IMG/VR virus record: IMGVR_UViG_3300037264_002389
Location: 10,545-74,544 of that record
DNA length: 64,000 bases
From: a virus
Taxonomy: Duplodnaviria; Heunggongvirae; Uroviricota; Caudoviricetes
Direction: 5' to 3' (one strand)
The stretch's first letter is position 1. Each line of letters begins with the position of its first letter. The notes under the pieces are model-generated. The model had not been told where the DNA came from and ran no database searches. It saw nothing but the letters and a program-made list of their open reading frames with translations. Shown piece by piece: positions 19,993 to 56,750 of this stretch. Both the position numbers and the translations under genes were made by a program.

Positions 19993-22914
19993 TTGGAGTC
20001 ACTAATGCCTCTTAAATGGCAATTATGGGATCGAGTCCGCGCTTTTATGCGGCAAGCTCAGATCTACAGAACCGATAATTTATATCAAGACCAAGAGACA
20101 ATCGACAAGATAGTATATGGAGGACAATTTCTTGACTTTAGTAAACAATCGGCTCTATTTGAACAGACCAGTCTACAGATAAATCGTCTGGAGCGCTATA
20201 AAGATTATGACATGATGGACGAAGTAGGTGAAGTCAGTCTAGCACTTGACATGTACGCGGACGAATCAACATTAATTGATCCAGAACGAAAGCACTCAAT
20301 AATAGTAAAAGCCAAGCGTAAGGGTCTCAAGAAAATTGTAGAAGATCTATTATATAACACATTAATGATTGACAGAGAAATTAGACCATTGGTACGTTAC
20401 CTATGCAAATATGGCGACTTTGTATCAGAAATTATACCAACTAAGAACCGCGATGGAGTTGCATCATTCAAATTCATGAACGTCTATAATTTCACACGAG
20501 TTCAAACCAAATATGGTGATCTAGTCGGTTTCTATTACCAAGACGCCGGTCTAGCAGAACCACAATTCTTACACCCATGGCAAGTAATGCACCTAAGACT
20601 TACAAGTTATGAAACTGTGTATCACCCTTACGGGCGATGTAGCGCACTGTGCAGCACAGTGTGCACACCAACTGGTTATAAATTATTGAAAGATATTCAG
20701 AAAGGTGATCAAGTATATTCGTTTGATCTTAAGACACAAAAACCAGTTATTACTACCGTTCTTGATAAGGTCTTAAATGGCAAGAAGAAGACGTTAATTA
20801 TTAAGACTAAACATCGTTCAATTCAAGTTACACCAGAACACCCAATGTTGGCTATTATTAAGAATAATTATATTTGTGAAGAACAATTATGTAGAGGTAC
20901 CGACCGCAATAAGCCACATATTCGTAGGCAACATAAGAGAGATATTAAAACTAAACAGTATGTTTTAGCACAAGATCTGGTCAGAAATGATAAACTTGTA
21001 CTTCCGAAGCTACACAATCCTGGGGTTGATATTCCAATTGAATCATACAAAATTGCACAACAATATGATGGTAAGAGAATGTGCTTCCCGCAATATGTTA
21101 CTGAAAATTTTGCTAGATTGATTGGTTTTTTGATTGGTGATGGTTGGGTCCCAAATGGAGGTAGGACATTATGTTTTGCAGAAGGTGAATATCAAGAATT
21201 AAATAATAAATATATTAGTATTATTAAATTATTTAATTATGAATCAGAACCATATCGGCATATTATCAAGGATAAAAATGGGCAAGAAAAGAAACATGGT
21301 TATTTCACATTTAACTCCATAGAATTAGCTCAGACAATAGTTAATATGGGTCTTGTTGGTCGCTGTTATGAGAAACGTATTCCTAAATGGGTGTTTGTTG
21401 CTAAGGAAGAAATTAAGAAGGCATTTATTGAAGGGTTGGTCGATGCAGATGGTTCAACAAATATTGATGAATGGGATTGTGAGCGATATCAAATTGAATT
21501 AACCTCAGAAGAGTTAGTGAAAGATCTGAAGGTCTTATTAGATCAAATGAATATTAAGTGTGGGAATATTAGCAAGCGTAATCGCTCTGATCCGATTGTT
21601 GTGTTTGATGGTGAAGAATATGAACGTCGTGATTCATGGATTGTGTATTGGTATGATGCTAAGATGCCATCAGGTGATTTAATGCATATGGGTAAGCGTA
21701 GGACGAAGTACGACAATTCATCTGATGACTATCTGGTTGAATCTATCCTATCGATAGAAGACGGTGGCGAGGTTGAAGTTGGTGATATCCAGGTTTCAGA
21801 GCATCACAACTTCGTGGCCGATGGTGTTGTTATCCACAATTCGATGTTAGATGGTGGTCGTAAGGATTTCAAACGTCTTAGACTGATGGAAGATGCCGCG
21901 CTTGTCTACAGGCTGACCCGCGCCCCCGAAAAGCGGATTTTTAGTATTCCAGTTGGTAATATTCCACCTAAGGAAGTGCCACAATATATTGAGTTGCTTG
22001 CTCGTCAGATGAAGAAGCATAAGTTCGTTGATCCTGCTACTGGTCAAGTTAATGAGCGTTATAGTCCACTAATTCAAGATGATGATTTCTGGTTGCCTAA
22101 GAGAGCTGATGGCACCGGCCCAACTATTGATACTTTACCGGGTGCTGAGAACCTTGATCAGATTGCTGATATTGAATATTTCAAGAAGAAGATGGTGGCT
22201 GGATTAAAGATTCCGTTTAATCGGGTTGGTATTGGTGAACCAGCTGAGGCCGATGGACGCTCATTGGCTTCTGTTTCACCTGAGTTTGCCAAGGCGATTC
22301 AATGGGTACAGCGTGAAGTGGTAATGGGTATTAAGAAGATTGTGCTTGTTCATTTGGCACTTCGTGGGCATTCTGTTGACGATCTTAGCAGTTTTGATTT
22401 GTCAATGACCGCCGCAAGTGCGATCGATGAGTTATATCGTATTGAAACATGGAATACTAGATCTGATATTATGAAGAACCTGAAGGAGCTTGGCTTCTTC
22501 CCTGATGAATGGATTGTTGAGCGCTTTACGGATATGTCGCCAGATGAAATTGCGCTTATGAAGAAGCAGAAGGGTGTTATTGCGCCGGATGAAATGAAGG
22601 CTGAAGATGTACAAGATGATGAAACTCGTGATCTAATTCTTGAGTATAATAACTTGCGGCCACACAGAGAATTACAGATTGATAATAGACATGATGTTAT
22701 AATATTTGCACCACAGTTCTATGTTAATGCTAAGGAACTTGATGGTTTGAAGAATAAGGATGGCAAGTATATTGTCGAAAGTAGTGTTGCAGAGGACGAT
22801 GCAACCGCAGTTAAAAAAGAGACGCGTAATTTATTGATGGAGGAAGCTGGTCACAAATCAGTTGAAGTTGATAGTGTTGTTAAGCAAATGGACGATGTTC
22901 CTACAAAAGAATAA
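19993..22914 (+). CDS. portal protein (gp20-like) interrupted by an intein
   Basis: 973 aa; about 580 aa remain without the intein, consistent with T4 gp20 size. Lies directly downstream of terL and upstream of the prohead protease. Confidence 0.8.
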   Translation: MESLMPLKWQLWDRVRAFMRQAQIYRTDNLYQDQETIDKIVYGGQFLDFSKQSALFEQTSLQINRLERYKDYDMMDEVGEVSLALDMYADESTLIDPERKHSIIVKAKRKGLKKIVEDLLYNTLMIDREIRPLVRYLCKYGDFVSEIIPTKNRDGVASFKFMNVYNFTRVQTKYGDLVGFYYQDAGLAEPQFLHPWQVMHLRLTSYETVYHPYGRCSALCSTVCTPTGYKLLKDIQKGDQVYSFDLKTQKPVITTVLDKVLNGKKKTLIIKTKHRSIQVTPEHPMLAIIKNNYICEEQLCRGTDRNKPHIRRQHKRDIKTKQYVLAQDLVRNDKLVLPKLHNPGVDIPIESYKIAQQYDGKRMCFPQYVTENFARLIGFLIGDGWVPNGGRTLCFAEGEYQELNNKYISIIKLFNYESEPYRHIIKDKNGQEKKHGYFTFNSIELAQTIVNMGLVGRCYEKRIPKWVFVAKEEIKKAFIEGLVDADGSTNIDEWDCERYQIELTSEELVKDLKVLLDQMNIKCGNISKRNRSDPIVVFDGEEYERRDSWIVYWYDAKMPSGDLMHMGKRRTKYDNSSDDYLVESILSIEDGGEVEVGDIQVSEHHNFVADGVVIHNSMLDGGRKDFKRLRLMEDAALVYRLTRAPEKRIFSIPVGNIPPKEVPQYIELLARQMKKHKFVDPATGQVNERYSPLIQDDDFWLPKRADGTGPTIDTLPGAENLDQIADIEYFKKKMVAGLKIPFNRVGIGEPAEADGRSLASVSPEFAKAIQWVQREVVMGIKKIVLVHLALRGHSVDDLSSFDLSMTAASAIDELYRIETWNTRSDIMKNLKELGFFPDEWIVERFTDMSPDEIALMKKQKGVIAPDEMKAEDVQDDETRDLILEYNNLRPHRELQIDNRHDVIIFAPQFYVNAKELDGLKNKDGKYIVESSVAEDDATAVKKETRNLLMEEAGHKSVEVDSVVKQMDDVPTKE
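20662..21840 (+). mobile_element. intein with two-motif LAGLIDADG homing endonuclease
   Basis: N-terminal Cys candidates at 20638, 20650 and 20662, so the start is uncertain. LAGLIDADG blocks LIGFLIGDGW and IEGLVDADGS. Ends VVIHN (HN at 21835-21840) followed by Ser at 21841 as the +1 residue. Confidence 0.8.
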
Positions 22915-28038: not shown

Positions 28039-29619
28039 ATGCGGAATGCAACCCGATCAGGCGTCCCGGCACACGCCAGTCACTACGCTGGTGCTCTGAC
28101 CGAAGAACGCCGAGTAGTTCGTGACCAGCGCCTCATGCTGGAAGGTAAGAAAAACAAGCTCGTGAATCGCTGGAACCCAGTCCTCCGCAAGTGCTTGGAG
28201 ATACCGGCTCAGAAGTTTGGCCTCATGGCTGCTATGCTGGAAAACCAGTACGCAGCTTGGGACCCAAAGAACCGCAGCGCCATCTTTGAGGAAGCAACCA
28301 CCACAGGCAACATCGCTGACTTCACCCGATTTGCGCTCCCACTCATCCGCAAGAGCTACCCACGGCTAATCGCTGACAACTTGGTCGGCGTGCAGCCAAT
28401 GAGCAGCCCAGCTAGCTTGATCTTCTACATCCGGTATCGCTACGCCATTAGCAAGGGCCAAACGATTGCCGGAACGCAGATCATGCGCCAGAACACGGCG
28501 CAGCAGTTCAGCCGTCAGAACGGTTGGGCACTTGATCCATACTACAGCAGCCAGACCGTCAAGGGTGAAGAACTCACCATTAGCGGCGGTGGTGCAGTAA
28601 TCAGCGGCACTCTGGCCCACAAGCCAGTCCTCGCCGGAACAGTTGTTGTCAACGTCTTCCTCGAAGACGACGACAACTGCGAAGATCCAACCCCATGTCT
28701 CCAAGTCACCTTCGATGCCAACGGGAATCCAGATCTAGTCCTGGTTGGTGAATCGACGGACTGCCCAGACGTGACGGTTGACACCAGCACGACCGGTGCC
28801 ACGGTCTTCGACCACACCACTGGTGAAGTAACCATCACGCTCTCGGCTGGTTCCTTCGCTGGAACAGCAATTGCTCGCGCTGATTACGAGTTCGATCTGG
28901 AAAATAATCCTTTTCAGCCAGAACTAACTCTGTCGATCGACAGTGATTCAGTCTCAGCCGTAACTCGTAAGCTCAAGACCACCTGGTCCCTCGAAGCGGC
29001 CCAGGACCTCAAGAGCGTTCACAACATCGATGCCGAAGGCACCCTCACCGACCTGATGGCCGATGAGATCGTAGCCGAAATCGACCGCGAAATCATCAAC
29101 GATCTAATCATCGCGGCCTCGATCCGAGCTACGCACAACTTCGGTACCGCTGCCGGTGCATCAGTGAACTTCACAGACCGCAACATCGCGCTCCTCTACA
29201 AGGTGCTCGAAGTCGCCAACGTGATTCACCGCACCACCCTCCGTGGACCAGCCAACTGGATGGTAACCAGTGCTGATATTGCCTCGAAGTTTGAGCAGCT
29301 GAATGACTTCCGAGGCTCTGATGCACTGGCTCAGGACGGAATCGATATCGGCATCATGAGCGCCGGTACGATTCAGGGCAAGATCAAGCTGTACAAGGAC
29401 CCGTTGTTCCCGAACTGCAAAATCCTCCTTGGCTTCAAGGGGAACTCGGTTCTGGATGCGGGTTACTTCTACGCACCGTACATCCCACTCCTGAGCACCC
29501 CAACGGTCCTCGATCCCAATAGCTTCACGCCAAGCAAGGGTGTAATGACCCGCTACGGCAAGAAGTTGATTGAGGATGGAGGTCTTTATTACGGGGTAAT
29601 CACGGTTTCGAATTTGTAA
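28039..29619 (+). CDS. major capsid protein (T4 gp23 family)
   Basis: LVGVQPMSSP vs gp23 CGVQPMNSP; SLEAAQDLKSVHNIDAEGTLTDLMADEIVAEIDREIIN vs SIELAQDLRAVHGMDADAELSGILATEIMLEINREVVD; AGYFYAPYIPL vs AGIYYAPYVAL. Confidence 0.92.
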   Translation: MRNATRSGVPAHASHYAGALTEERRVVRDQRLMLEGKKNKLVNRWNPVLRKCLEIPAQKFGLMAAMLENQYAAWDPKNRSAIFEEATTTGNIADFTRFALPLIRKSYPRLIADNLVGVQPMSSPASLIFYIRYRYAISKGQTIAGTQIMRQNTAQQFSRQNGWALDPYYSSQTVKGEELTISGGGAVISGTLAHKPVLAGTVVVNVFLEDDDNCEDPTPCLQVTFDANGNPDLVLVGESTDCPDVTVDTSTTGATVFDHTTGEVTITLSAGSFAGTAIARADYEFDLENNPFQPELTLSIDSDSVSAVTRKLKTTWSLEAAQDLKSVHNIDAEGTLTDLMADEIVAEIDREIINDLIIAASIRATHNFGTAAGASVNFTDRNIALLYKVLEVANVIHRTTLRGPANWMVTSADIASKFEQLNDFRGSDALAQDGIDIGIMSAGTIQGKIKLYKDPLFPNCKILLGFKGNSVLDAGYFYAPYIPLLSTPTVLDPNSFTPSKGVMTRYGKKLIEDGGLYYGVITVSNL

Positions 29620-44625: not shown

Positions 44626-44691
44626 TACTTACTTGACAAGCTTGATTTATGTGGTAAAATATAGATTGGAGATGTTTGATAACGATACTGA

Positions 44692-44768
44692 CGCAGGCGG
44701 CTAGGGCTGGCTGCTCTGGAGAGGCCCATAACCTTTCAACGAGAGTTCGATTCTCTCGCCTGCTACCA
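44692..44768 (+). ncRNA. tRNA-like RNA element, candidate tRNA-like module of a Y RNA
   Basis: Canonical T-arm gagag-TTCGATT-ctctc, 7-bp acceptor-like stem with a 1:72 mismatch, discriminator A plus CCA. Anticodon-like stem-loop agagg-CCCAUAA-ccttt (CAU). No foldable D-arm and no U8 or U33. Lies immediately upstream of a Ro60 gene. Confidence 0.5.
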
Positions 44769-44772
44769 CAAG

Positions 44773-44990
44773 ACAGGGGACTGCGCGTCATTCCAGCTAC
44801 CGATAATGGCAAAATGACTTCGTAAATCCCCCTGTATTATGAGGAGACAATCGAGAGACTGCGCGTCATTCCAGCAACTTCATACGGAGAAGTCAGGTGT
44901 AAACCTGAGCGAAAAAATGACCACGCGATTCCTCTCGATTTTATACCTACTTGGTCGTAAGATTTAGAGACTGCACGTCACTATTGACTG
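44773..44990 (+). repeat. three iterated stem-loop units sharing the core gactgcgcgtcattccagc
   Basis: Core copies at 44779-44797, 44857-44875 and a degenerate 44968-44985. Each is embedded in flanking inverted repeats (acagggga/tcccctgt; tcgagag/ctctcga; tagaga/tctct). Confidence 0.6.
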
Positions 44991-45028
44991 CGATTTCTCT
45001 TTAATTACGAAGTCTAATTACGACAACC

Positions 45029-46624
45029 ATGACGCAAGATACGAAATACGAACGCAATGGAGAAGATATAATGTCAACTACTACCCAAACAAATCAACTA
45101 GCCCACATAGAGCATTTCACGCCGGAACTTAAAGCGCGAATCCCACAGGCTCTATCAGATATGATCGATGTGTCATTCTCGGCAACTAACCGAGCAACGT
45201 TCTATAACTCCAAGCAGGAACAGGAAGCAGCTGTTGAGAAAATTCACAAGGAATTATTTAACCTGGATAGAGGTCTATATGGACTAAGCCTCCTATTACC
45301 GGGAACGAACGACTATGCGAGACAACTTGGCCTAGGGTTTTTGCTTGATAATCCCCGTGGCGGCAAATTGGCTGTGTTAACAGAAGCACAGGAAGCCAAG
45401 CTAGTAACCTACTTGGCCCAATTCATGCCCCCACAGCGATTATTTAAGCTTTATCGCGAGCTACGGCAGAACCGTGTCAATAACTCTAGGACAAGAAAAC
45501 TCATCCTCCGAACCATCCTAGGTTCACGAAGACTTGAATTATGGGCAGTCAAGTACAGATTTAAAATCAGACAGGCACTTAGCCATGCATGGGGCCGCGC
45601 TACAGCACTGGCAATGAAGGCAATCCTATCCAAAGAAGGGAAAGATAGATCTGAGCAGGAAACCAAAGGATTGGAGAGGAATATCACCAAGTACGCAGCA
45701 GAGCCGACCAAGGCACTAGAGTGTGTTAAATTCATTTTCGGAGTAGAGACTGGACTAACCATCCCGATCCTTAAGTCTTATCATGCCGCCAGAACTGATC
45801 TGTCTAAAGGGAAGGATCTACCAGAAGAACAACTCGAATATTTGCGCAACAGGCTCCATCCAACGGTCAGCCGAGCAGAAGTGCTTAAACTCGCCAAGAG
45901 CACTATGTCCGAAGGCAAGAAAATGGCAGTTCAAAGACAGGCTAAAGAAGCCGGTGTCGAAATTAAATTCGATCCATCAGCAGCTGATCCTGTTAGGCTC
46001 TACATTTATGCCTATGAAATGGGCATGACGAATGAAATTTCCAATGAACTAAAAAAGAAGGCAAAGAAAACAGCAGATATGCTACTCACCAAATACGATA
46101 AGATTGGTATTGTGATTGACAACTCTTTATCAATGCGTGGACATGGTACGCAGAAGAACCGCCCAATTGCAGTTGCTCTTGCTACTCGTGATATGCTTGA
46201 GGCGGCATCAGAAAATGCCACCATTGAATATTGTGGGCAAGAAACTAATAAACTGGTTCAGCCGATTGGTGATACTAGTCTGTCATATGCTTTGGTTAAG
46301 GTTCTCAAGAGTGGCAAATTAGATTCAGTGTTCGTCATTACTGATGGATATGAAAATGCTCCCGCTGGGCGTTTCGCTCAGACGGTAGAGGCTGTTAGGA
46401 AAATCGGAATCGTTACGCCGATCTTCCAGATCGCCCCTGTAATGGCTGCTGAGAAGGGCGGTATTCGGCAGATATCATCGCAAGTTCCGGCTATGCCATT
46501 GAATAAGCCGGAAGCGATAAATGTTGTAATCATCAAATCATTGCTTGTTTCTGATGTCGATAAGGCAATCCTAGGGATGGCTAAGTCTCTATTGCCACAA
46601 CTTGGGGAGAATAGCGATGACTGA
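45029..46624 (+). CDS. rsr: Ro60/Rsr orthologue (TROVE domain plus C-terminal vWA with MIDAS)
   Basis: [22 protein letters not shown] vs human Ro60 [36 protein letters not shown] vs MWGRALRKAIADW; vWA [9 protein letters not shown] (DxSxS) vs [17 protein letters not shown] vs [25 protein letters not shown] vs ADVFIVFTDNETFAG; 531 aa. Confidence 0.78.
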   Translation: [531 protein letters not shown]

Positions 46625-47675
46625 ATTGACTATTAGTGAGATTCTACGTGGGTTAGTGCCCGGTAGATTACAATCGGTTGGTTTGATGCAGGTTATTCCG
46701 TTGACCTGCACGGACCCCGATCTATTTGATCAGGATCTAGTGTCGCCGATGCATAATTATGATGCACAGTCTTCGAATGTGCGAGTCACTAGCGGCACGA
46801 CAGGATATGGTGCAATGCAGTTTAAGAATCCGACTGATAAGGTTTTGCTTGTCCCATGCCATGTTGGTTATGTTACCAAACATGCATCGCAGGACCACGC
46901 TATGGCTACTTCTGGTTTAGTCGCAGCAAAGAAGGAGAAGATATTTGAGAACGCGATGTGTATTCAACAGAGGCAAGGTGGCTTGATTCCACTTGAGCAA
47001 CATAAGATGTTAATCCTCCCATACTCTCTACGCGAATGTGCTTTAGCTAAGAGAAGCAGCAATGAATTTAGTAGACTATGGGAAGACATTGATGACTTTA
47101 ATAAGACACTTGGTATTGCCACGCGAGGTGGGCATCTTGAATACTTCATGGATGCTTTTAAAGAAGAGCTAGATCAATTTGTTGCCGAGTTTGAGATTGT
47201 ACCTGGACAGACTGGCGCGATTATCTTGGTTAATGGTTCGGTGGTAGGTGTTGAGCGAGCACCTTCTCCTAAGTTCTGGTCAGAGGTTTGGGATGCTCTG
47301 ATTAGAGAGTGCTATGGTTCGCTGGCTATTGAAGTTAGCCGTAAAACAGGTAATCGTTTACCGCCTCCAAGCACTAGGACTGCGATTGATCTGCAACAGA
47401 TTAATACCCTTGATGATCTGGAAAAGGAATTGCAACGCGCAGATTGCGACGCCGAGGCGAGGGTTAAGACCATAGTGCGCGATCTATTGGAAGATCCGTT
47501 TAAAACCAAGAACGAAGGTGATCTTAATAGATATAATCTCATGACCCTTGAGAATGGTCAATTTAATGGTCAGGTGGTACGAGAGAGCCAGAGGGTTGTT
47601 TATGCCTCTCTGTTCACCACTAAGTCATGGGCTAAGAATGCTCCGTGGATGAAGGCCAGTAAGTTTGCAGTCTAG
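46602..47675 (+). CDS. hypothetical protein co-operonic with the Ro60 gene
   Basis: 357-aa ORF overlapping the rsr stop by 23 nt. Confidence 0.5.
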   Translation: MGRIAMTELTISEILRGLVPGRLQSVGLMQVIPLTCTDPDLFDQDLVSPMHNYDAQSSNVRVTSGTTGYGAMQFKNPTDKVLLVPCHVGYVTKHASQDHAMATSGLVAAKKEKIFENAMCIQQRQGGLIPLEQHKMLILPYSLRECALAKRSSNEFSRLWEDIDDFNKTLGIATRGGHLEYFMDAFKEELDQFVAEFEIVPGQTGAIILVNGSVVGVERAPSPKFWSEVWDALIRECYGSLAIEVSRKTGNRLPPPSTRTAIDLQQINTLDDLEKELQRADCDAEARVKTIVRDLLEDPFKTKNEGDLNRYNLMTLENGQFNGQVVRESQRVVYASLFTTKSWAKNAPWMKASKFAV

Positions 47676-50384: not shown

Positions 50385-50571
50385 TCATGCAGCCATCTGG
50401 TGTTGCATGAATCATTCGGATTAGGAGATGCCATTAGATTATGTCCGGATGAGCAGTTGCGAGACGTTAACTCCTGGTAAGAGTGTGATGCGTCTCGACC
50501 AGAGCCACATTCTATAACACCTTGTGCACGGGTGTGAATGTGGAAAATAGTAGTTTAGTGTGTTGTGAGTG

Positions 50572-50615
50572 TCCCGGTTGACACGTTATACCAGCGTGTC
50601 AACCGGGATTTTAAT
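50572..50615 (+). terminator. strong rho-independent terminator closing the rsr operon
   Basis: 14-bp perfect stem tcccggttgacacg / cgtgtcaaccggga with a 9-nt loop, followed by TTTTAAT. Confidence 0.75.
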
Positions 50616-50627
50616 AAGGCATAAACT

Positions 50628-51131
50628 ATGATCTACCGCGCACTAATGTTCGCCAAAGCAGCCCATAAAGGTCAATTCAGAAAATATACTAACGAACCAT
50701 ACGTAACACACCCAATCAGAGTAGCACACGCAGTAATGCTACATCCTATAGTGGCAGAAGATATGATAGCAGCAGCCTTCCTACATGATGTGCCAGAAGA
50801 TACCGAATTCACAATAGAACAAATCACTAACCTATTTGGACAAGAAGTAGGAACCTTAGTTGACGAACTAACAAACCAAAGCAAAGCCACCGGATTGCCA
50901 AGAGCAGAACGAAAATCCATGGATCGTGAACGCCTCAAAACAGTCAGTAAGAAAGCTAAGATCATTAAAATGCTAGACCGAATTGATAACCTTAATGAAA
51001 TGCATGGAGCAGAATACGACTTCAAGAAACTATATGTCGGTGAGTCATTATGGTTAGCAGATTCTATTGGAGATGCAGACCCAGCTCTGAAGAAAAGATT
51101 AATAACAGCAGCCAATTTACTACATGCTTGA
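50628..51131 (+). CDS. small alarmone hydrolase (SpoT/RelA HD-domain, Mesh1-like)
   Basis: AHKGQFRKYTNEPYVTHP (cf. AHxGQxRxSGEPYIxHP), AAFLHDVPEDT (HD...ED), KMLDRIDNL (cf. KLADRLHNM); 167 aa. Confidence 0.78.
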   Translation: MIYRALMFAKAAHKGQFRKYTNEPYVTHPIRVAHAVMLHPIVAEDMIAAAFLHDVPEDTEFTIEQITNLFGQEVGTLVDELTNQSKATGLPRAERKSMDRERLKTVSKKAKIIKMLDRIDNLNEMHGAEYDFKKLYVGESLWLADSIGDADPALKKRLITAANLLHA

Positions 51132-51333
51132 ACCCACCGACCTAGATCCGGAGCTAACACGTCTGCTAACATGGTGGATGAAAAACAAGCAGCGAGTCGC
51201 ATGGGCTTATGGAGCAGACCAAATAATCGTCGGAGCAGAAATAGCTTGTAATATCGAACTAACTCCAGATGAAGTATTGGCAATAAAGGACAGAAAAGCA
51301 TTTAAATTAAAGATACCAGCATTCAAGAAATAA
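51124..51333 (+). CDS. hypothetical small protein
   Basis: 69 aa, overlapping the previous stop. Confidence 0.3.
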   Translation: MLEPTDLDPELTRLLTWWMKNKQRVAWAYGADQIIVGAEIACNIELTPDEVLAIKDRKAFKLKIPAFKK

Positions 51334-52049: not shown

Positions 52050-52958
52050 ATGGACAAACGACAGCAAAAACTAGAACGAAAACGCAAAAAACGCAACAAG
52101 CTTAGGCAAGAACACCTATGTAAGCGTGGTCTTGAACGGAAAAGCTTACTCCGCGATTACCTAATGCGCGGCCAATATGTCCTACCAAAGCACTGTCTCC
52201 CATCCAAAGACGACATGGACGGCTGGCACGACATTAATGCCATTCGAGACCGTGCCAAAATTATGACTAAAGCTATCGAATTATTCGATACAGACGTCAC
52301 TCTTAAAGAGTATTTGGACGGTCATCTAAACATCCACGACAACCAAAAACGAAAGAAATTAAACGAAATTTTTAGTATCGCTGCACAAGAATTATGTTGC
52401 AAACCACCTTACTTCATACCCCATATGACCATGATAGCTGATGGCAGATATTACGCACCAGCACTAAGCCTCTACCTACTCAAGAAAAAAGGCACAGGAC
52501 CAGGAACCCTCTGGTACGACCTCGAAAACATTCTAGAAATTGATTCCAAACACGTCCTATTCTCAACCCACGCCATAGAGCGCATCATAGCTAGACTGGA
52601 CCTCGTCAAAAACAAATACACGAAAAACACACTGTCTATACTCCTATTCTCGCGTATGAAATTAGGCCCAATGGCAGCAGCTAGAGGCGAACCACTACTA
52701 CAACTATATAATGAACCACTCTATGGCGATACAGAACCATTCGGATACTGCCCAATCTCATATAACAAAGACATCATAGTAGCCACCACCTACCTATTAC
52801 CAGGCATGTCTGGCACCCCAGAAGGAGTAGTCCTCAGAATGGCCGGAGAATATCCAGCAATCAACAACATTAATGATTTAGAGGAGAATAAGGAGAAATT
52901 TGAGAAGGCTGGACTACCGACATTCATTAGTGAGAAGGACGATTCACAAAAGACATGA
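52050..52958 (+). CDS. hypothetical protein
   Basis: 302 aa with a basic N-terminus. Confidence 0.45.
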   Translation: MDKRQQKLERKRKKRNKLRQEHLCKRGLERKSLLRDYLMRGQYVLPKHCLPSKDDMDGWHDINAIRDRAKIMTKAIELFDTDVTLKEYLDGHLNIHDNQKRKKLNEIFSIAAQELCCKPPYFIPHMTMIADGRYYAPALSLYLLKKKGTGPGTLWYDLENILEIDSKHVLFSTHAIERIIARLDLVKNKYTKNTLSILLFSRMKLGPMAAARGEPLLQLYNEPLYGDTEPFGYCPISYNKDIIVATTYLLPGMSGTPEGVVLRMAGEYPAINNINDLEENKEKFEKAGLPTFISEKDDSQKT

Positions 52959-53862
52959 CTCTTTGGGCTTTTCTATCGAGATATAATGTACAGTTTGTGT
53001 ATAATGCTCTTCCTATGAGTAAGGCGTCGTGACCGCACCACCAGGTATTGTAGATTAGTTGTTTTGATATTTTGTTTATTTTAATGGTTTCCTGATATTG
53101 TGTCAATACTAATTTAATGATTTGTGTTTGAACCCACTCTATTATCGGATAATGTCGGCTGCAGAATCCCAATCTTAGATAACGATTTTTATTGTGGGTA
53201 ACAGTTCCATCACCATCCCACAATCCGCGTAAGAAATGTTTCATGTTTAGATTAAGTTTTTCTAATTTGATAATGCCTTGCTTATATTCTGGCCAACCAG
53301 CTTGTTGATAGAATTCATATAATTCTTTATTATTAATAGAGATGTAGGCTCTGTCGAATGTTTTACCAGCGCATCTGACTTGACCTTTCTTTGGTTGGAT
53401 TGTGCTTTTTAATGATCTAGATAATTTATATAAGTGGCCAATATCTTTGTAAGCTAGATTTATTCTAATACGATGTGTAGTTTTTGGCATATACCCGTCA
53501 CTTAGGAAGAAACCAAACCAGTAACTGCCAGTCTCACTTGATAGATCCATAATGTCGGTTAGATCGAGATCATAATGGCGGGCAGCTGTACTTCGGTCTC
53601 GTAGTTCGACATTATGCTTCTTTAACTGCATCGCGACTACTATTGCACTACATCTGAATCTTTTTGCTATGTCATATGTGCTCATGCCTGAATTGTATAA
53701 GGAGGTAGCCAAAGTTGTATTGACCTTCATTGGCGTTGGTGGACGTGGTTTTATTTTGTTTTCTCTGAGTATTTTATATATGGTTTTATCGTTTACATGG
53801 TACTTTCGCGCTAGTTTTCTTATACCAGTCCCAGAAATGTATTCGGTGACGATGTTTATCAA
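52927..53862 (-). CDS. free-standing LAGLIDADG homing endonuclease with N-terminal HTH modules
   Basis: LRGLWDGDG and WFGFFLSDG motifs; two HTH-like segments (IRKLARKYHVNDKTIYKIL; TYDIAKRFRCSAIVVAMQL); minus strand among + genes. Confidence 0.6.
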   Translation of the reverse strand: MINIVTEYISGTGIRKLARKYHVNDKTIYKILRENKIKPRPPTPMKVNTTLATSLYNSGMSTYDIAKRFRCSAIVVAMQLKKHNVELRDRSTAARHYDLDLTDIMDLSSETGSYWFGFFLSDGYMPKTTHRIRINLAYKDIGHLYKLSRSLKSTIQPKKGQVRCAGKTFDRAYISINNKELYEFYQQAGWPEYKQGIIKLEKLNLNMKHFLRGLWDGDGTVTHNKNRYLRLGFCSRHYPIIEWVQTQIIKLVLTQYQETIKINKISKQLIYNTWWCGHDALLIGRALYTNCTLYLDRKAQRVMSFVNRPSH

Positions 53863-53930: not shown

Positions 53931-56750
53931 ATGGCTAAGTTACCAGATGTTGATAATCTTGTTGATTCTCAATTTTTCCAGGTCCCTTTAAGCGATGGTT
54001 TATTAGCAGGGTTTAGCTACGATTCGCAGACTCGTTCGTTAATTCAAAAAGAATCACAGGTGATCGTACCGAGTCGCCATGGCATGACCCATGTCGCGGA
54101 GGACCCCGTACCAGATGCGTCATGTGATCTACATGGTTTGATGTCTGCCGACGATAAGTGTAAGTTGGATGCGATGTTGCAGATGCGTTTGGGGATTTTG
54201 GGTTTTCAAGGAAGTGGTTTCCCAGATGATGGTGGCTTCTTGGTTGGCGATGTTGTCTTGGCCGCTGGTAGCGAGTTTATTAGCATAGAACGCATTGGTA
54301 ATACGATCAGGTTTACGGTTGATTCTCCGTTGCCTTTGAATTGTGCGTGTGAGGAATGTGCTAGGATTTTTTGGATTCAGGATGAGTCTGAGGCTCGTGC
54401 GATTCGTCCTCCATCGTGCAATGGTGTGATGCCTGATGTTAATACTTATGGCGAGTTGAAGATTTATACCTTCCCTGAATCTACTCTTCTTGATGTTACT
54501 GATCCGCTGGCTACTTTAAATCGGAAGGGTGAATTTCCGGCGTTGGTGTTTAAGCGTTTTGATGATGCGGTTACGCCTGGTCAGAATGAGTTTGAGATGG
54601 TTCTGAAGCGTAATGCTAATCTTACTTCTAATGTTGGTTGGGCTTTTACGCCTGGTGCTCAGGGTATTGCGCAGTGTGTTTGGTTTATGGGCAATGCTAA
54701 TGATGGTTCGCAGATGAAGTTTGAGTTGGCTCCTGAGGTTGAGCCTGGGTTGTTGGGTTCGTTGTTGTTTATGGGGCATTTGATTACTAAGCAGATGGCA
54801 GTGGTTGTTGATGTTGATCAGAATGTTCTTAGTAATAATCAGTATGTGTTACGTAAGTGGGACATTCAGGGTGCCAAGCCGCTTGGTCAGAGTTTTACCG
54901 CTACAAATGTTTGGATGTATAATAATCCTGAAAATTCTCCAACTGCGATTAGTAATCCACGTACTTTGACGCTTGATAGCACTAAATCGATCATTCCGAT
55001 TGGTTCGTTGATTGAGATTTGGGAGTTCGAGATTACTCGTAATTCGCAGCAGCGGGTTACGAGGCATTTCTTTAGTAAAGAACCTCAGCTAAATCCGTCG
55101 TCGTTGTGGGCTTTGGCTGATGCTTTACAATTCGGTGATCTATTTGCTGCTCGTGAGGAGATTAATGATCCTCAGAGTGATACTGCAGTGTCTGCTTCTG
55201 AGATCGATGTGTCAGATAAGCGTTTATTGGAGAAGACGTTGTGGGGTTTGACCAATTTTGAGGATAGATTACTATTGTCCGATGATGGTGGTGAGGTTGA
55301 ATCTTCGGATGGCATTATTCGTCGTGAGCCGTCTGGTGAGCCGGTTAATAATGACATCGTGGCTGATATTGATCCTACTTTGCCTGGTTTGAGAGTGGTG
55401 CATCAAGCTAAGAGTTTAATTGCTGATATTAATGGAGATGGGATAGTAGATGATGAGGATTTAAGATTATTCATGTGTGCGTATAATACGACGATTTTTG
55501 ATGCTAAGTATAATCCTGGGGCTGATTTTAATGCCGATGGTAAGGTTGATGTGCGTGATCTCTCCATTCTTGGTCAACAGTTTGATTTGAATATTGAGAA
55601 GGTTAGCGATAGACCGGTGTTCCTATGGCATCGGCAGAATCATAAGAATATCTTGTTGAAGTTTAAGATTGGTATGCCAGATTCTGTGCAACAGAAGACA
55701 TTCCCACCATATGATTTGTTATTGTCTGCACCTGTTGATAGTTTCGATGACACTTATCTTAAGATTGTTAAGCGTGGTGTGTTTACTACTGGCCCGTTTG
55801 CTGGTTTGCCGTTTGTAGTTGCCAAGGGGATGCGTTGGGAGGATATGCCAGATCGGGGCGTACTACGGATTTTGACCGGTGCGTTTAGAAATGGGGTGTG
55901 GCCATATCAGTTTAAAGCGGCGTTTGCTAACTGGGATGACGATGGGATTACGTTGATTGGTTCTGGGGATGTTTTCCCATTCGATGAGGATTTCCCGATT
56001 GGTGATTTGGCTACTGGTTGTGATGTTGAAGCTACGGGTGCGGATGTGACGGGTTGTCCTACGGATGGTTGTCCTCCAATTGAGAGCACAGCTGCTACTG
56101 AGGTGACCGCTGCTATTTCTGAGATTGAAGCGGTTGAGGTTCCTGCAAATTCGACTGTGGTTGAATTGTTACGGCAGGATTTTACCGCTCCTTGTGTGAG
56201 GTTCCAATTTAGTGTCAATACTGATTCTGGCAGTGAGTCAGTGCAGTTGCAGGTGAAGGTTGGACTATTAGACATGAGTGTGCCATATGAGTTGAATGAT
56301 TCGATTGATCCTGTTGATGATTTGGTGCGTGGATTCCGTGCGGGTGCTGCTGTTAGTCGTGTGTTTACTCAATCTGGTATTATTACTGATGGTGTGGGTT
56401 TAGATGTTACGTCTGATCCTGAAGGTTTTAGGGTGTATTCCGGTGGAGAGTTAGATGTTCCGGTGAATGGTCAGGTTGAGAAGTGGAATGATGTTGAAAT
56501 TATGTTTAGAGATGGTCAGGTGTGGGTTTGGTGGAATGGGCTATTGATTACTCCGGATACGGTGGAGTCGGCGAGTTTGACTTCTCCGGTTGCTGTTAAT
56601 ACTCCATATTTCCCGTTGAACCCACAGGTTGCTATTGGGAAGGTTGCGTTTAGGCTGTTCCCTGGGGCTACGATGCGGTTTGTTGAGGTTAGGGACCAGC
56701 TTGAAGCTTTTACAGAATTTAGTAAGGGTCAGTTACAGCTGACTAATTGA
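53931..56750 (+). CDS. large virion or fibre-like protein with an internal dockerin-like duplicated Ca-binding segment
   Basis: 939 aa; DINGDGIVDDEDLRLF ... DFNADGKVDVRDLSILGQQF (nt ~55425-55590) matches the duplicated DxNxDGxVxxxDL dockerin repeat; RBS ataggaggtaatta. Confidence 0.6.
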   Translation: MAKLPDVDNLVDSQFFQVPLSDGLLAGFSYDSQTRSLIQKESQVIVPSRHGMTHVAEDPVPDASCDLHGLMSADDKCKLDAMLQMRLGILGFQGSGFPDDGGFLVGDVVLAAGSEFISIERIGNTIRFTVDSPLPLNCACEECARIFWIQDESEARAIRPPSCNGVMPDVNTYGELKIYTFPESTLLDVTDPLATLNRKGEFPALVFKRFDDAVTPGQNEFEMVLKRNANLTSNVGWAFTPGAQGIAQCVWFMGNANDGSQMKFELAPEVEPGLLGSLLFMGHLITKQMAVVVDVDQNVLSNNQYVLRKWDIQGAKPLGQSFTATNVWMYNNPENSPTAISNPRTLTLDSTKSIIPIGSLIEIWEFEITRNSQQRVTRHFFSKEPQLNPSSLWALADALQFGDLFAAREEINDPQSDTAVSASEIDVSDKRLLEKTLWGLTNFEDRLLLSDDGGEVESSDGIIRREPSGEPVNNDIVADIDPTLPGLRVVHQAKSLIADINGDGIVDDEDLRLFMCAYNTTIFDAKYNPGADFNADGKVDVRDLSILGQQFDLNIEKVSDRPVFLWHRQNHKNILLKFKIGMPDSVQQKTFPPYDLLLSAPVDSFDDTYLKIVKRGVFTTGPFAGLPFVVAKGMRWEDMPDRGVLRILTGAFRNGVWPYQFKAAFANWDDDGITLIGSGDVFPFDEDFPIGDLATGCDVEATGADVTGCPTDGCPPIESTAATEVTAAISEIEAVEVPANSTVVELLRQDFTAPCVRFQFSVNTDSGSESVQLQVKVGLLDMSVPYELNDSIDPVDDLVRGFRAGAAVSRVFTQSGIITDGVGLDVTSDPEGFRVYSGGELDVPVNGQVEKWNDVEIMFRDGQVWVWWNGLLITPDTVESASLTSPVAVNTPYFPLNPQVAIGKVAFRLFPGATMRFVEVRDQLEAFTEFSKGQLQLTN

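Follow-up and report, generated by a model that had tools for sequence, protein, structure and literature searches.

An apparently stand-alone small alarmone hydrolase of a large, distant T4-type phage and its incidental-looking Ro60-like neighbour

Introduction

What does a small alarmone hydrolase (SAH) do in a large phage, and does it act alone or together with the genes that surround it? The question is raised by a 64,000-nucleotide stretch of viral DNA (hereafter the window), in which a putative SAH gene lies downstream of a gene for a Ro60-like protein. SAHs are present in many phages and prophages (Jimmy et al. 2020, PMC7229694). Those of the Salmonella phages PVP-SE1 (PbcSpo) and SSU5 (PaSpo), which are stand-alone enzymes, neutralise all five toxSAS toxins tested, namely CapRel, PhRel, PhRel2, FaRel and FaRel2 (PMC7229694), and incoming phages have been proposed to bypass alarmone-based defence by means of such enzymes (Jimmy et al. 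2020, PMC7229694). SSU5 PaSpo also removes the modification that FaRel2 installs at the 3′-CCA terminus of tRNAs (PMC11559606), and its co-expression is a routine means of taming CapRel (PMC9712102). Moreover, ‘HD-alarmone PDEases’ have been listed, and proposed, as a counter-defence of jumbo phages (Iyer et al. 2021, PMC7824862).

Results

Phage origin of the window

The window encodes a tail sheath, a baseplate hub, a helicase, a large terminase, a portal and a major head protein, and more phage-type genes are found on the other side of the SAH gene. The SAH is thus phage-encoded. The capsid protein belongs to a distant T4 type and is most similar to that of LR756511.1, an uncultured huge phage of 595 kb (39.8% identity), ahead of those of cyanomyoviruses (29%). 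With 10 kb of the window as query, megablast against 50,697 catalogued phages retrieved no relative at the nucleotide level.

The SAH gene and its borders

Coordinates of the SAH gene, its motifs and the neighbouring elements are collected in Table 1. A public protein identical to the window SAH (P0001) is recorded on a 129-kb contig, and a relative with 81% identity is also available (P0002). In the JGI gene call of P0001 the start is placed at Met7. We prefer the upstream ATG at 50628, because it is preceded by a Shine-Dalgarno-like AAGG and because SAH relatives align with the protein starting at residues 1-3. No promoter was identified for the SAH gene.

The opposite strand carries an open reading frame longer than the SAH itself (50672..51301, 209 aa), which we rejected as a true gene. 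It has no Pfam match and its codon score is -0.06 (log2 odds per codon), whereas the SAH frame scores +0.17 and five genes nearby score +0.09 to +0.31. We regard this antisense frame as a shadow ORF. On the coding strand, the 69-aa ORF whose start overlaps the SAH stop codon is possibly co-translated with the SAH. It has no match in Pfam, PHROG, NCBIfam or PADLOC, and among 101 loci none has a homologue of it beside the SAH gene, even with the threshold relaxed to E<5. The 118-aa ORF upstream of the SAH gene likewise gave no family match in domain searches of the flanking ORFs, and PADLOC reported no defence-system match for the SAH or eight of its neighbours.

Table 1. Positions of the SAH gene, its motifs and neighbouring elements in the window
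Feature	Position	Strand	Description
Ro60-like gene (‘rsr’ of the original prediction)	45029..46624	+	531 aa; Ro60-like by predicted fold
ARPP-1 gene	46602..47675		Next gene after the Ro60-like gene; ARPP-1 domain, E=7e-33
GC-rich terminator-like hairpin	50573..50615	+	Arms 50573-50585/50595-50607, perfect 13 bp, 9-nt loop, then ATTTTAAT
Shine-Dalgarno-like AAGG	50616..50619	+	8 nt 5′ of the SAH ATG at 50628
SAH gene	50628..51131	+	ATG to TGA, 167 aa; one HD_4 domain, then C-terminal helices typical of SAH/Mesh1
Codons H13-x-G-Q16-x-R18-K19 ... P24-Y25-x-x-H28-P29	50664..50714	+	Predicted substrate-binding Arg/Lys and first metal-binding His
Codons H53-D54-V-P-E57-D58	50784..50801	+	Predicted HD metal-binding dyad and ED catalytic dyad
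Codons D117-R-I-D-N121	50976..50990	+	Predicted last metal ligand and ribose/base-contacting Asn
69-aa ORF	51124..51333	+	Its ATG overlaps the SAH stop codon (ATGCTTGA)

The 243-nt spacer upstream of the SAH gene (50385-50627) folds exceptionally well as RNA (-98 kcal/mol, z=-7.4), and at its end lies the hairpin 50573-50607, the strongest stem of this fold. As predicted from the sequence, this terminator-like hairpin separates the SAH gene from the string of genes upstream. The original prediction had placed the SAH gene right after the terminator of an rsr operon. That a strong hairpin stands directly upstream is correct, but it is absent from the list given by a consensus terminator scan, and the gene called ‘rsr’ is Ro60-like by its predicted fold only.

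Family assignment of the SAH

Sequence profiles agree on the identity of the protein. Pfam HD_4 (PF13328) scores 65.5 bits over residues 5-129, where its cut-off is 27.2 (E=5.8e-18), and PHROGs returns phrog_990, ‘metal-dependent phosphohydrolase’ (E=2.8e-31). The match to NCBIfam TIGR00691 spoT_relA concerns only its N-terminal hydrolase part (E=4.7e-25), and it is also the N-terminal hydrolase part of PRK11092 that matches. Minor Pfam matches are the generic HD model (E=0.00063) and DUF7303, the latter being noise (E=0.2). Only HD-type domains are found at a significant E-value, with no synthetase, TGS or ACT domain, so the protein is single-domain. A sequence search of the PDB gave 23 matches headed by Drosophila Mesh1 (E=4.5e-17); the other top ones were Lmo0812, human MESH1 and the Rel and SpoT hydrolase domains, and the weaker ones included Aph1 and P. 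aeruginosa SAH (5e-4).

The motifs HxGQxR, PY..HP, HD..ED and DRxxN, which had been claimed for this gene, are all present, as H13-K-G-Q16-F-R18, P24-Y25-V-T-H28-P29, H53-D54-V-P-E57-D58 and D117-R-I-D-N121. A homologue search collected 76 SAH relatives, all with HD_4 as their sole domain and mostly of ~160-200 aa. Fourteen positions are invariant in the 47 relatives that were aligned (H13, R18, Y25, H28, H53, D54, E57, T82, R92, K114, D117, N121, Y136 and E139), and others nearly so: Q16 (44/47), K19 (46/47), P29 (45/47), D58 (46/47) and D120 (45/47). The metal-binding H...HD...D set, here H28, H53-D54 and D117, is thus kept in every aligned relative. In the PDB sequence alignments these motif residues line up with the equivalent residues of Mesh1 and Lmo0812; the correspondences used here are drawn from such alignments and from PMC10083569. 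In particular, N121 aligns with the Asn equated with TtRel N150 and Aph1 N114 in that study, which also reports the HD motif as necessary for activity in characterised SAHs (PMC10083569).

The predicted structure points in the same direction. An AlphaFold2 model built from the alignment of relatives has a pLDDT of 97.6 and a pTM of 0.92. With Foldseek, the whole chain superimposes on Mesh1 (3nr1, 3nqw) with a TM of 0.88 and an rmsd of 2.1 A over ~170 columns; the TM is 0.86 to P. aeruginosa SAH (6yvc) and 0.80-0.85 to C. glutamicum RelH. All 47 matches at E<=1e-3 are Mesh1, SAH, Rel, RelA, SpoT or Aph1, and the model aligns end to end with SAHs and Mesh1 of 170-180 aa. Judged from sequence and model, the protein is a member of the RelA/SpoT-homologue superfamily with an apparently complete active site, and this family assignment is secure. 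The prediction of a phage-encoded SAH is therefore borne out by the sequence profiles, the conservation of the motifs, the predicted fold and the phage hallmark genes on both sides.

Distribution of phage SAHs

Homologues of the SAH were found in 237 of the 50,697 catalogued phage records, all below 60% identity and the highest at 41%. Their carriers include phages of Dickeya, Agrobacterium, Erwinia, Pseudomonas, Vibrio and Escherichia as well as LR756511.1, which is also the closest capsid relative and whose copy is 37.8% identical to the window SAH. More than 528 IMG/VR viral contigs also carry a homologue, and one metagenome scan gave no SAH relative above 41% identity.

The Ro60-like neighbour and its ARPP-1 partner

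The product of the ‘rsr’ gene escapes recognition by sequence. It has no TROVE match in Pfam at E<0.01, where only a weak VWA_2 match appears (E=5e-4), no NCBIfam match and no PDB match by sequence. It has more than 300 homologues, none of the 120 listed having a Pfam domain; the few that are named are called ‘VWA domain-containing protein’. Its AlphaFold2 model (pLDDT 92) consists of helices forming an alpha-repeat region at residues 32-350 and a vWA-type alpha/beta region at 356-525. All seven PDB structure matches of this model at E<=1e-3 are Ro60/TROVE proteins, matched over the full length (E=1.1e-8 to 5e-5), with 12-14% identity and a TM of 0.35-0.52. On the strength of this modelled fold, the product is a very divergent Ro60-like protein and not a recognisable Rsr orthologue.

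Just upstream of this gene we found an atypical tRNA-like element (44695-44768, detected by ARAGORN only) and three repeated hairpin modules, with a near-consensus promoter ahead of the whole. No Y_RNA or YrlA match of Rfam lies beside the Ro60-like gene. More generally, no Rfam family reaches its gathering threshold over the whole window, and at E<=5 the sole weak match over 44.4-52.1 kb is tRNA-Sec, on the ARAGORN tRNA.

The pair formed by the Ro60-like and ARPP-1 genes recurs on two phage-like metagenomic contigs and in the huge phage LR756500.1. The three genes that follow the pair in the window, and the SAH gene, do not recur with it there. The pair is rare in catalogued phages, and it is not among the described ARPP neighbourhoods.

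Neighbours of SAH genes in other genomes

From its position next to the Ro60 module, the SAH had been suggested to belong to an island of host-manipulation genes. Conservation gives this proposal no support, the pair and the SAH not being together in the other loci examined. In tblastn searches, none of 13 window neighbours, among them the Ro60-like and ARPP-1 genes, was detected in 80 IMG/VR SAH loci or in the LR756511.1 locus; another 21 SAH loci from metagenomes stood outside these searches, their neighbours entering only an all-against-all clustering. In the gene tables of the two closest relatives that could be retrieved for the SAH (59% and 55% identity), no protein has the size or family of the Ro60-like one, and there the SAH genes sit in long arrays of small unannotated ORFs. 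Conversely, no SAH gene was found within 10-15 kb in the three other loci with the Ro60-like and ARPP genes. As the two are not found together in the other loci examined, their adjacency in the window looks incidental. The stretch of accessory genes that holds both also includes a LAGLIDADG homing endonuclease.

To look for partners, we took 99 loci and clustered every ORF lying no more than 2.5 kb from the SAH gene. Recurrent neighbours comprise an AAA_33 kinase, a DSP-like phosphatase, ClpP and a DNA ligase. Since the most frequent neighbour family occurs in only 19 of the 99 loci, the SAH appears to be a stand-alone gene.

Discussion

Proposed function

We propose that the window encodes a stand-alone, single-domain SAH, an accessory gene of a large, distant T4-type phage, whose product would act during infection as a 3′-pyrophosphohydrolase of broad specificity. 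From the sequence, the model and the analogy with characterised relatives, we give this reading a probability of about 0.8. By homology, the metal site formed by H28, H53-D54 and D117, probably occupied by Mn2+, and the E57-D58 dyad would hydrolyse a 3′-pyrophosphate ester. To judge by characterised relatives, the enzyme would strip the 3′-pyrophosphate from (p)ppGpp and (p)ppApp during infection, and the CCA ends of tRNAs pyrophosphorylated by toxic alarmone synthetases of the CapRel, PhRel or FaRel type are a probable further substrate. The host would in this way be kept out of the growth arrest imposed by the stringent response or by a toxSAS abortive-infection system, and the SAH would do so alone, with no conserved partner gene. 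The roles suggested for it at the outset, a reset of (p)ppGpp or the destruction of alarmones made by toxins, are in line with the activities demonstrated for other SAHs of phages (PMC7229694, PMC11559606).

Substrate preference and alternative readings

Some phage HD-domain hydrolases have a narrower range. Enzymes of the Aph1 type, specific for (p)ppApp, display D24-K25-A26 in place of the guanine-binding R43-R44-S45 of TtRel (Ahmad et al. 2023, PMC10083569). D24 takes the place of the guanine-stacking Arg of Rel and, with R96, D116, R119, K133 and Y134, makes up the Aph1 signature; D116 and R119 follow the catalytic Asn, and the double change D24R + R119A opens Aph1 to ppGpp (PMC10083569). 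The window SAH departs from this signature. The position of D24 is taken by R18 (47/47), followed by K19 (46/47), the register being that of the GQxR(K/R) motif alignment rather than of a direct alignment with Aph1. The positions +2 and +5 from N121 (N123 and H126) are neither D nor R, and they are variable in the family. The conserved Y136 could correspond to Y134 of Aph1. Because Arg18-Lys19 would occupy the base-contacting position as in Mesh1 and Rel, where Aph1 has an Asp, activity on both G and A alarmones is expected. Such broad specificity seems more likely than a restriction to (p)ppApp, the SAH resembling the promiscuous type of Mesh1, PaSAH and PaSpo, although this call is made at 25-38% identity to characterised enzymes, where sequence is not a reliable guide to substrate preference. 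The authors who described the SAH of phage Adele state the same caveat (PMC12846349).

These residues also bear on a different role, that of an Aph1-type hydrolase specific for (p)ppApp and conferring immunity to a toxin that makes (p)ppApp, be it encoded by the phage itself (e.g. a MuF-fused Apk2) or delivered by a competitor. Aph1 (7smg) is itself phage-encoded (PMC10083569) and is a detectable relative of the SAH by sequence and by structure (Foldseek E ~2e-4). The SAH is nevertheless far closer to Mesh1 and Rel (E 4.5e-17 vs 2.5e-6 for Aph1; TM 0.88 vs 0.56), the C-terminal helices absent from Aph1 are present in its model, and a Pfam scan of its neighbours over ~7 kb upstream and 3 kb downstream revealed no synthetase, MuF or toxin domain. 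We rejected this role, which we consider very unlikely, on the invariant Arg at the position of the determinant D24. A toxSAS would have to be encoded nearby if the SAH were the type IV antitoxin of a phage-borne pair, in the manner of ATfaRel, an SAH that neutralises the toxSAS next to it (PMC7229694). No ORF flanking the SAH gene contains a RelA/SpoT synthetase domain, the overlapping 69-aa and the upstream 118-aa ORFs having no family match at all. With the synthetase gene absent, the toxin-antitoxin reading was rejected and has hardly any credibility left.

The substrate could alternatively be a nucleotide other than an alarmone, phosphorylated in 3′ or 2′, for example NADPH or PAPS by analogy with metazoan MESH1, in which case the phage would rewire cofactor pools of its host. 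It is indeed with human MESH1 in complex with NADPH and PAPS that the SAH model gives its best Foldseek matches, and according to one report a bacterial orphan SAH is metabolically promiscuous (PMC9765508). Yet (p)ppGpp is hydrolysed with the same fold and residues by Mesh1 itself and by every Rel/SpoT enzyme, and we consider this possibility unlikely. To our knowledge, an NADPH or PAPS phosphatase role is without precedent in phages. Moreover, the products of toxSAS are the targets of the only phage SAHs tested (PMC7229694, PMC11559606). A last reading takes up the neighbourhood and makes the SAH part of an island for RNA surveillance or repair with the Ro60-like and ARPP-1 proteins, for example cleaning 3′-pyrophosphorylated ends of tRNA or tRNA-like molecules handled by the Ro60-like ring. 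The SAH gene lies on the same strand as the Ro60-like one, 4.0 kb downstream of its stop codon; upstream of the latter are a tRNA-like element and hairpin repeats; SAHs can act on tRNA 3′ ends (PMC11559606); and in other phages SAH genes are sometimes found near kinase, phosphatase or ligase genes. Against this, the two genes are never together in the other loci compared (the 80 IMG/VR SAH loci, the LR756511.1 locus and the three Ro60-like/ARPP loci), and their frequencies differ widely, with one phage record among 50,697 for the Ro60-like gene and 237 for the SAH. Three non-conserved genes, the structured spacer and the terminator-like hairpin also intervene between them. Such an island is highly improbable, and so, to the same degree, is its most explicit form, in which the SAH would free tRNAs or tRNA-like RNAs captured by the Ro60-like ring and ARPP-1 from pyrophosphate or other groups blocking their 3′ ends, the RNAs at 44.7 kb and 50.4 kb being Y-RNA-like cofactors. 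If it were true, a virus would have joined toxSAS counter-defence with RNA quality control of the Ro60 type.

Relation to known hydrolases

A stand-alone hydrolase of broad specificity, the reading that we prefer, has close parallels. The annotated phosphohydrolase SSU5_099 of phage SSU5, which we take to be PaSpo, is 37.6% identical to the window SAH over 141 aa in a pairwise comparison (E=7e-22). Both are stand-alone phage HD_4 hydrolases and their catalytic motifs are identical, but the SSU5 enzyme is longer (213 vs 167 aa), with a C-terminal extension absent from the window SAH, and the phage carrying the latter, of distant T4 type, is unrelated to SSU5. A search of the first 50 kb of the PVP-SE1 genome did not find the SAH of that phage. 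Mesh1/HDDC3 (Drosophila 3nqw; human 3nr1, 5vxa), the top match both in sequence and in structure, is a single-domain protein of similar size which has the R-K, H, HD, ED and D..N residues in common with the window SAH at 27-30% identity. The loop between the RK motif and PY is one residue shorter in the window SAH. While the latter is phage-borne, Mesh1 is a metazoan cytosolic enzyme with an additional NADPH phosphatase activity.

The bacterial enzymes PaSAH (6yvc), RelH of C. glutamicum (7qod) and Lmo0812 (4yf1) have the fold in common with the window SAH (TM 0.80-0.86) at 24-26% identity, but they are chromosomal, with housekeeping or anti-T6SS functions, and not phage genes. PaSAH hydrolyses (p)ppGpp as well as (p)ppApp (cited in PMC10083569, PMC12846349). 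Like the window SAH, Aph1 is a phage-encoded HD-domain alarmone hydrolase, although the similarity is weak and two C-terminal helices seen in the model of the window SAH are missing from Aph1. The ‘HD-alarmone PDEase’ of jumbo phages of groups 2 and 3 recalls the window SAH by its large-genome setting and its predicted counter-defence role; this class is defined bioinformatically only (PMC7824862).

Significance of the locus

The SAH is thus an ordinary, divergent addition to a class already known from published work to occur in phages and to neutralise toxSAS toxins. It matters little by itself, adding one divergent sequence to that class, but it could serve as a test case for the substrate preference of phage SAHs among (p)ppGpp, (p)ppApp and pyrophosphorylated tRNA. 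The Ro60-like/ARPP-1 pair, with the tRNA-like and hairpin RNAs upstream of it, is more unusual than the SAH and merits its own evaluation. Closer to the SAH gene, the structured spacer at 50385-50572 ranks among the more unusual features.

A Ro60-like gene paired with an ARPP-1 gene

The window carries a two-gene pair that is conserved in two phage-like metagenomic contigs and in the huge phage LR756500.1 (loci L102, L103 and L107). The 531-aa product of the first gene is predicted to fold into an alpha-repeat ring followed by a vWA domain, and the predicted-structure search gave significant PDB matches to Ro60/TROVE proteins only, at 12-14% identity. This protein is thus Ro60-like by its predicted fold only. 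Its family comprises more than 300 members, mostly bacterial, across which a Pfam domain is absent, and it occurs in only one of 50,697 catalogued phage records. Directly 3′ of this gene lies the second one, encoding an ARPP-1 domain protein. The ARPP neighbourhoods given in PMC9503650 comprise ARG systems, HIRAN, WYL and deacetylase; a Ro60-like partner is absent from them.

Coordinates of the features discussed (positions in the window or in the named locus)
Feature	Sequence	Coordinates	Strand	Remark
Portal ORF	window	19993-22914	+	973 aa
Capsid protein gene	window	28039-29619	+	
Spacer upstream of Ro60-like gene	window	44626-45028	+	
Ro60-like and ARPP-1 gene pair	window	45029-47675	+	
Non-coding structured stretch	window	50385-50572	+	immediately 5′ of the hydrolase's hairpin
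LAGLIDADG homing endonuclease	window	52927-53862	-	free-standing; N-terminal helix-turn-helix domains
939-aa ORF	window	53931-56750	+	
Ro60-like and ARPP-1 gene pair	L102	9780-12440		
Ro60-like and ARPP-1 gene pair	L103	10001-12794		
Ro60-like and ARPP-1 gene pair	L107	15001-17606		

Structured RNA upstream of the Ro60-like and hydrolase genes

The spacer 5′ of the Ro60-like gene contains a near-consensus promoter (TTGACA-16-TAAAAT, 44633-44660), followed by an element called by ARAGORN as ‘tRNA-Met(CAT)’ (44695-44768), which stays under Rfam's tRNA threshold. Further 3′, GACTGCRCGTCA is found three times (at 44779, 44857 and 44969), each copy within a hairpin module (fold z=-3.7). With its tRNA-like domain and putative protein-binding stems, the spacer could be a candidate Y-RNA/YrlA-like partner RNA.

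The 243-nt spacer 5′ of the small alarmone hydrolase gene is also highly structured (-98 kcal/mol, z=-7.4), RNA folding placing four more stable hairpins in its non-coding stretch besides the hydrolase's own. This stretch has neither an Rfam match nor a motif in common with the hairpin modules at 44.8 kb; it could yield a small RNA, contain a processing site or serve as an mRNA leader.

The hydrolase gene and its neighbourhoods in other phages

The identical protein of the public collection (P0001) is called as 161 aa, beginning at Met7 of the window hydrolase. We favour the upstream ATG at 50628 as start (start region 50628-50645), because of the alignment of relatives and of an AAGG at -8.

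In the hydrolase loci of other phages (L001-L101, drawn from IMG/VR and metagenomes), some genes recur close to the hydrolase gene: 15 loci have one for an AAA_33 P-loop kinase, 15 one for a DSP-like phosphatase (under the Pfam threshold), 8 one for ClpP and 6 one for an ATP-dependent DNA ligase. An unannotated ORF without Pfam match recurs in 19 loci; judged by eye only, its HFGH and GNHD motifs resemble a metallophosphoesterase's. As these loci are phylogenetically non-independent, they give only a hint of a neighbourhood for nucleotide or RNA-end processing.

Phage lineage, mobile elements and unusual ORFs

The window phage is a distant T4-type myovirus, with a contig on record of 129 kb. 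Its capsid protein is nearest to that of the uncultured huge phage LR756511.1 (595 kb, 39.8%), and the sole catalogued phage with the Ro60-like gene, LR756500.1, is likewise a huge phage, so a large-genome phage lineage may be the source of the window.

A distance of 1.8 kb separates the hydrolase from a downstream LAGLIDADG gene (Pfam LAGLIDADG_3, E=5.8e-8; phrog_4645, E=1.4e-27), which marks the surrounding stretch as a mobile, accessory region. In the portal ORF, portal profiles match residues 613-879 only, while residues 358-532 form an endonuclease-like segment (phrog_4645) and a helicase-like bit also precedes the portal-matching part. Such an arrangement points to a portal gene that either carries an inserted intein or homing endonuclease or is a fusion. 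Two Asp-rich repeats resembling dockerin/EF-hand motifs (DINGDGIVDDEDL and DFNADGKVDVRDL) are visible in the translation of the 939-aa ORF, which has no PHROG match; its product may have a structural or host-binding role.
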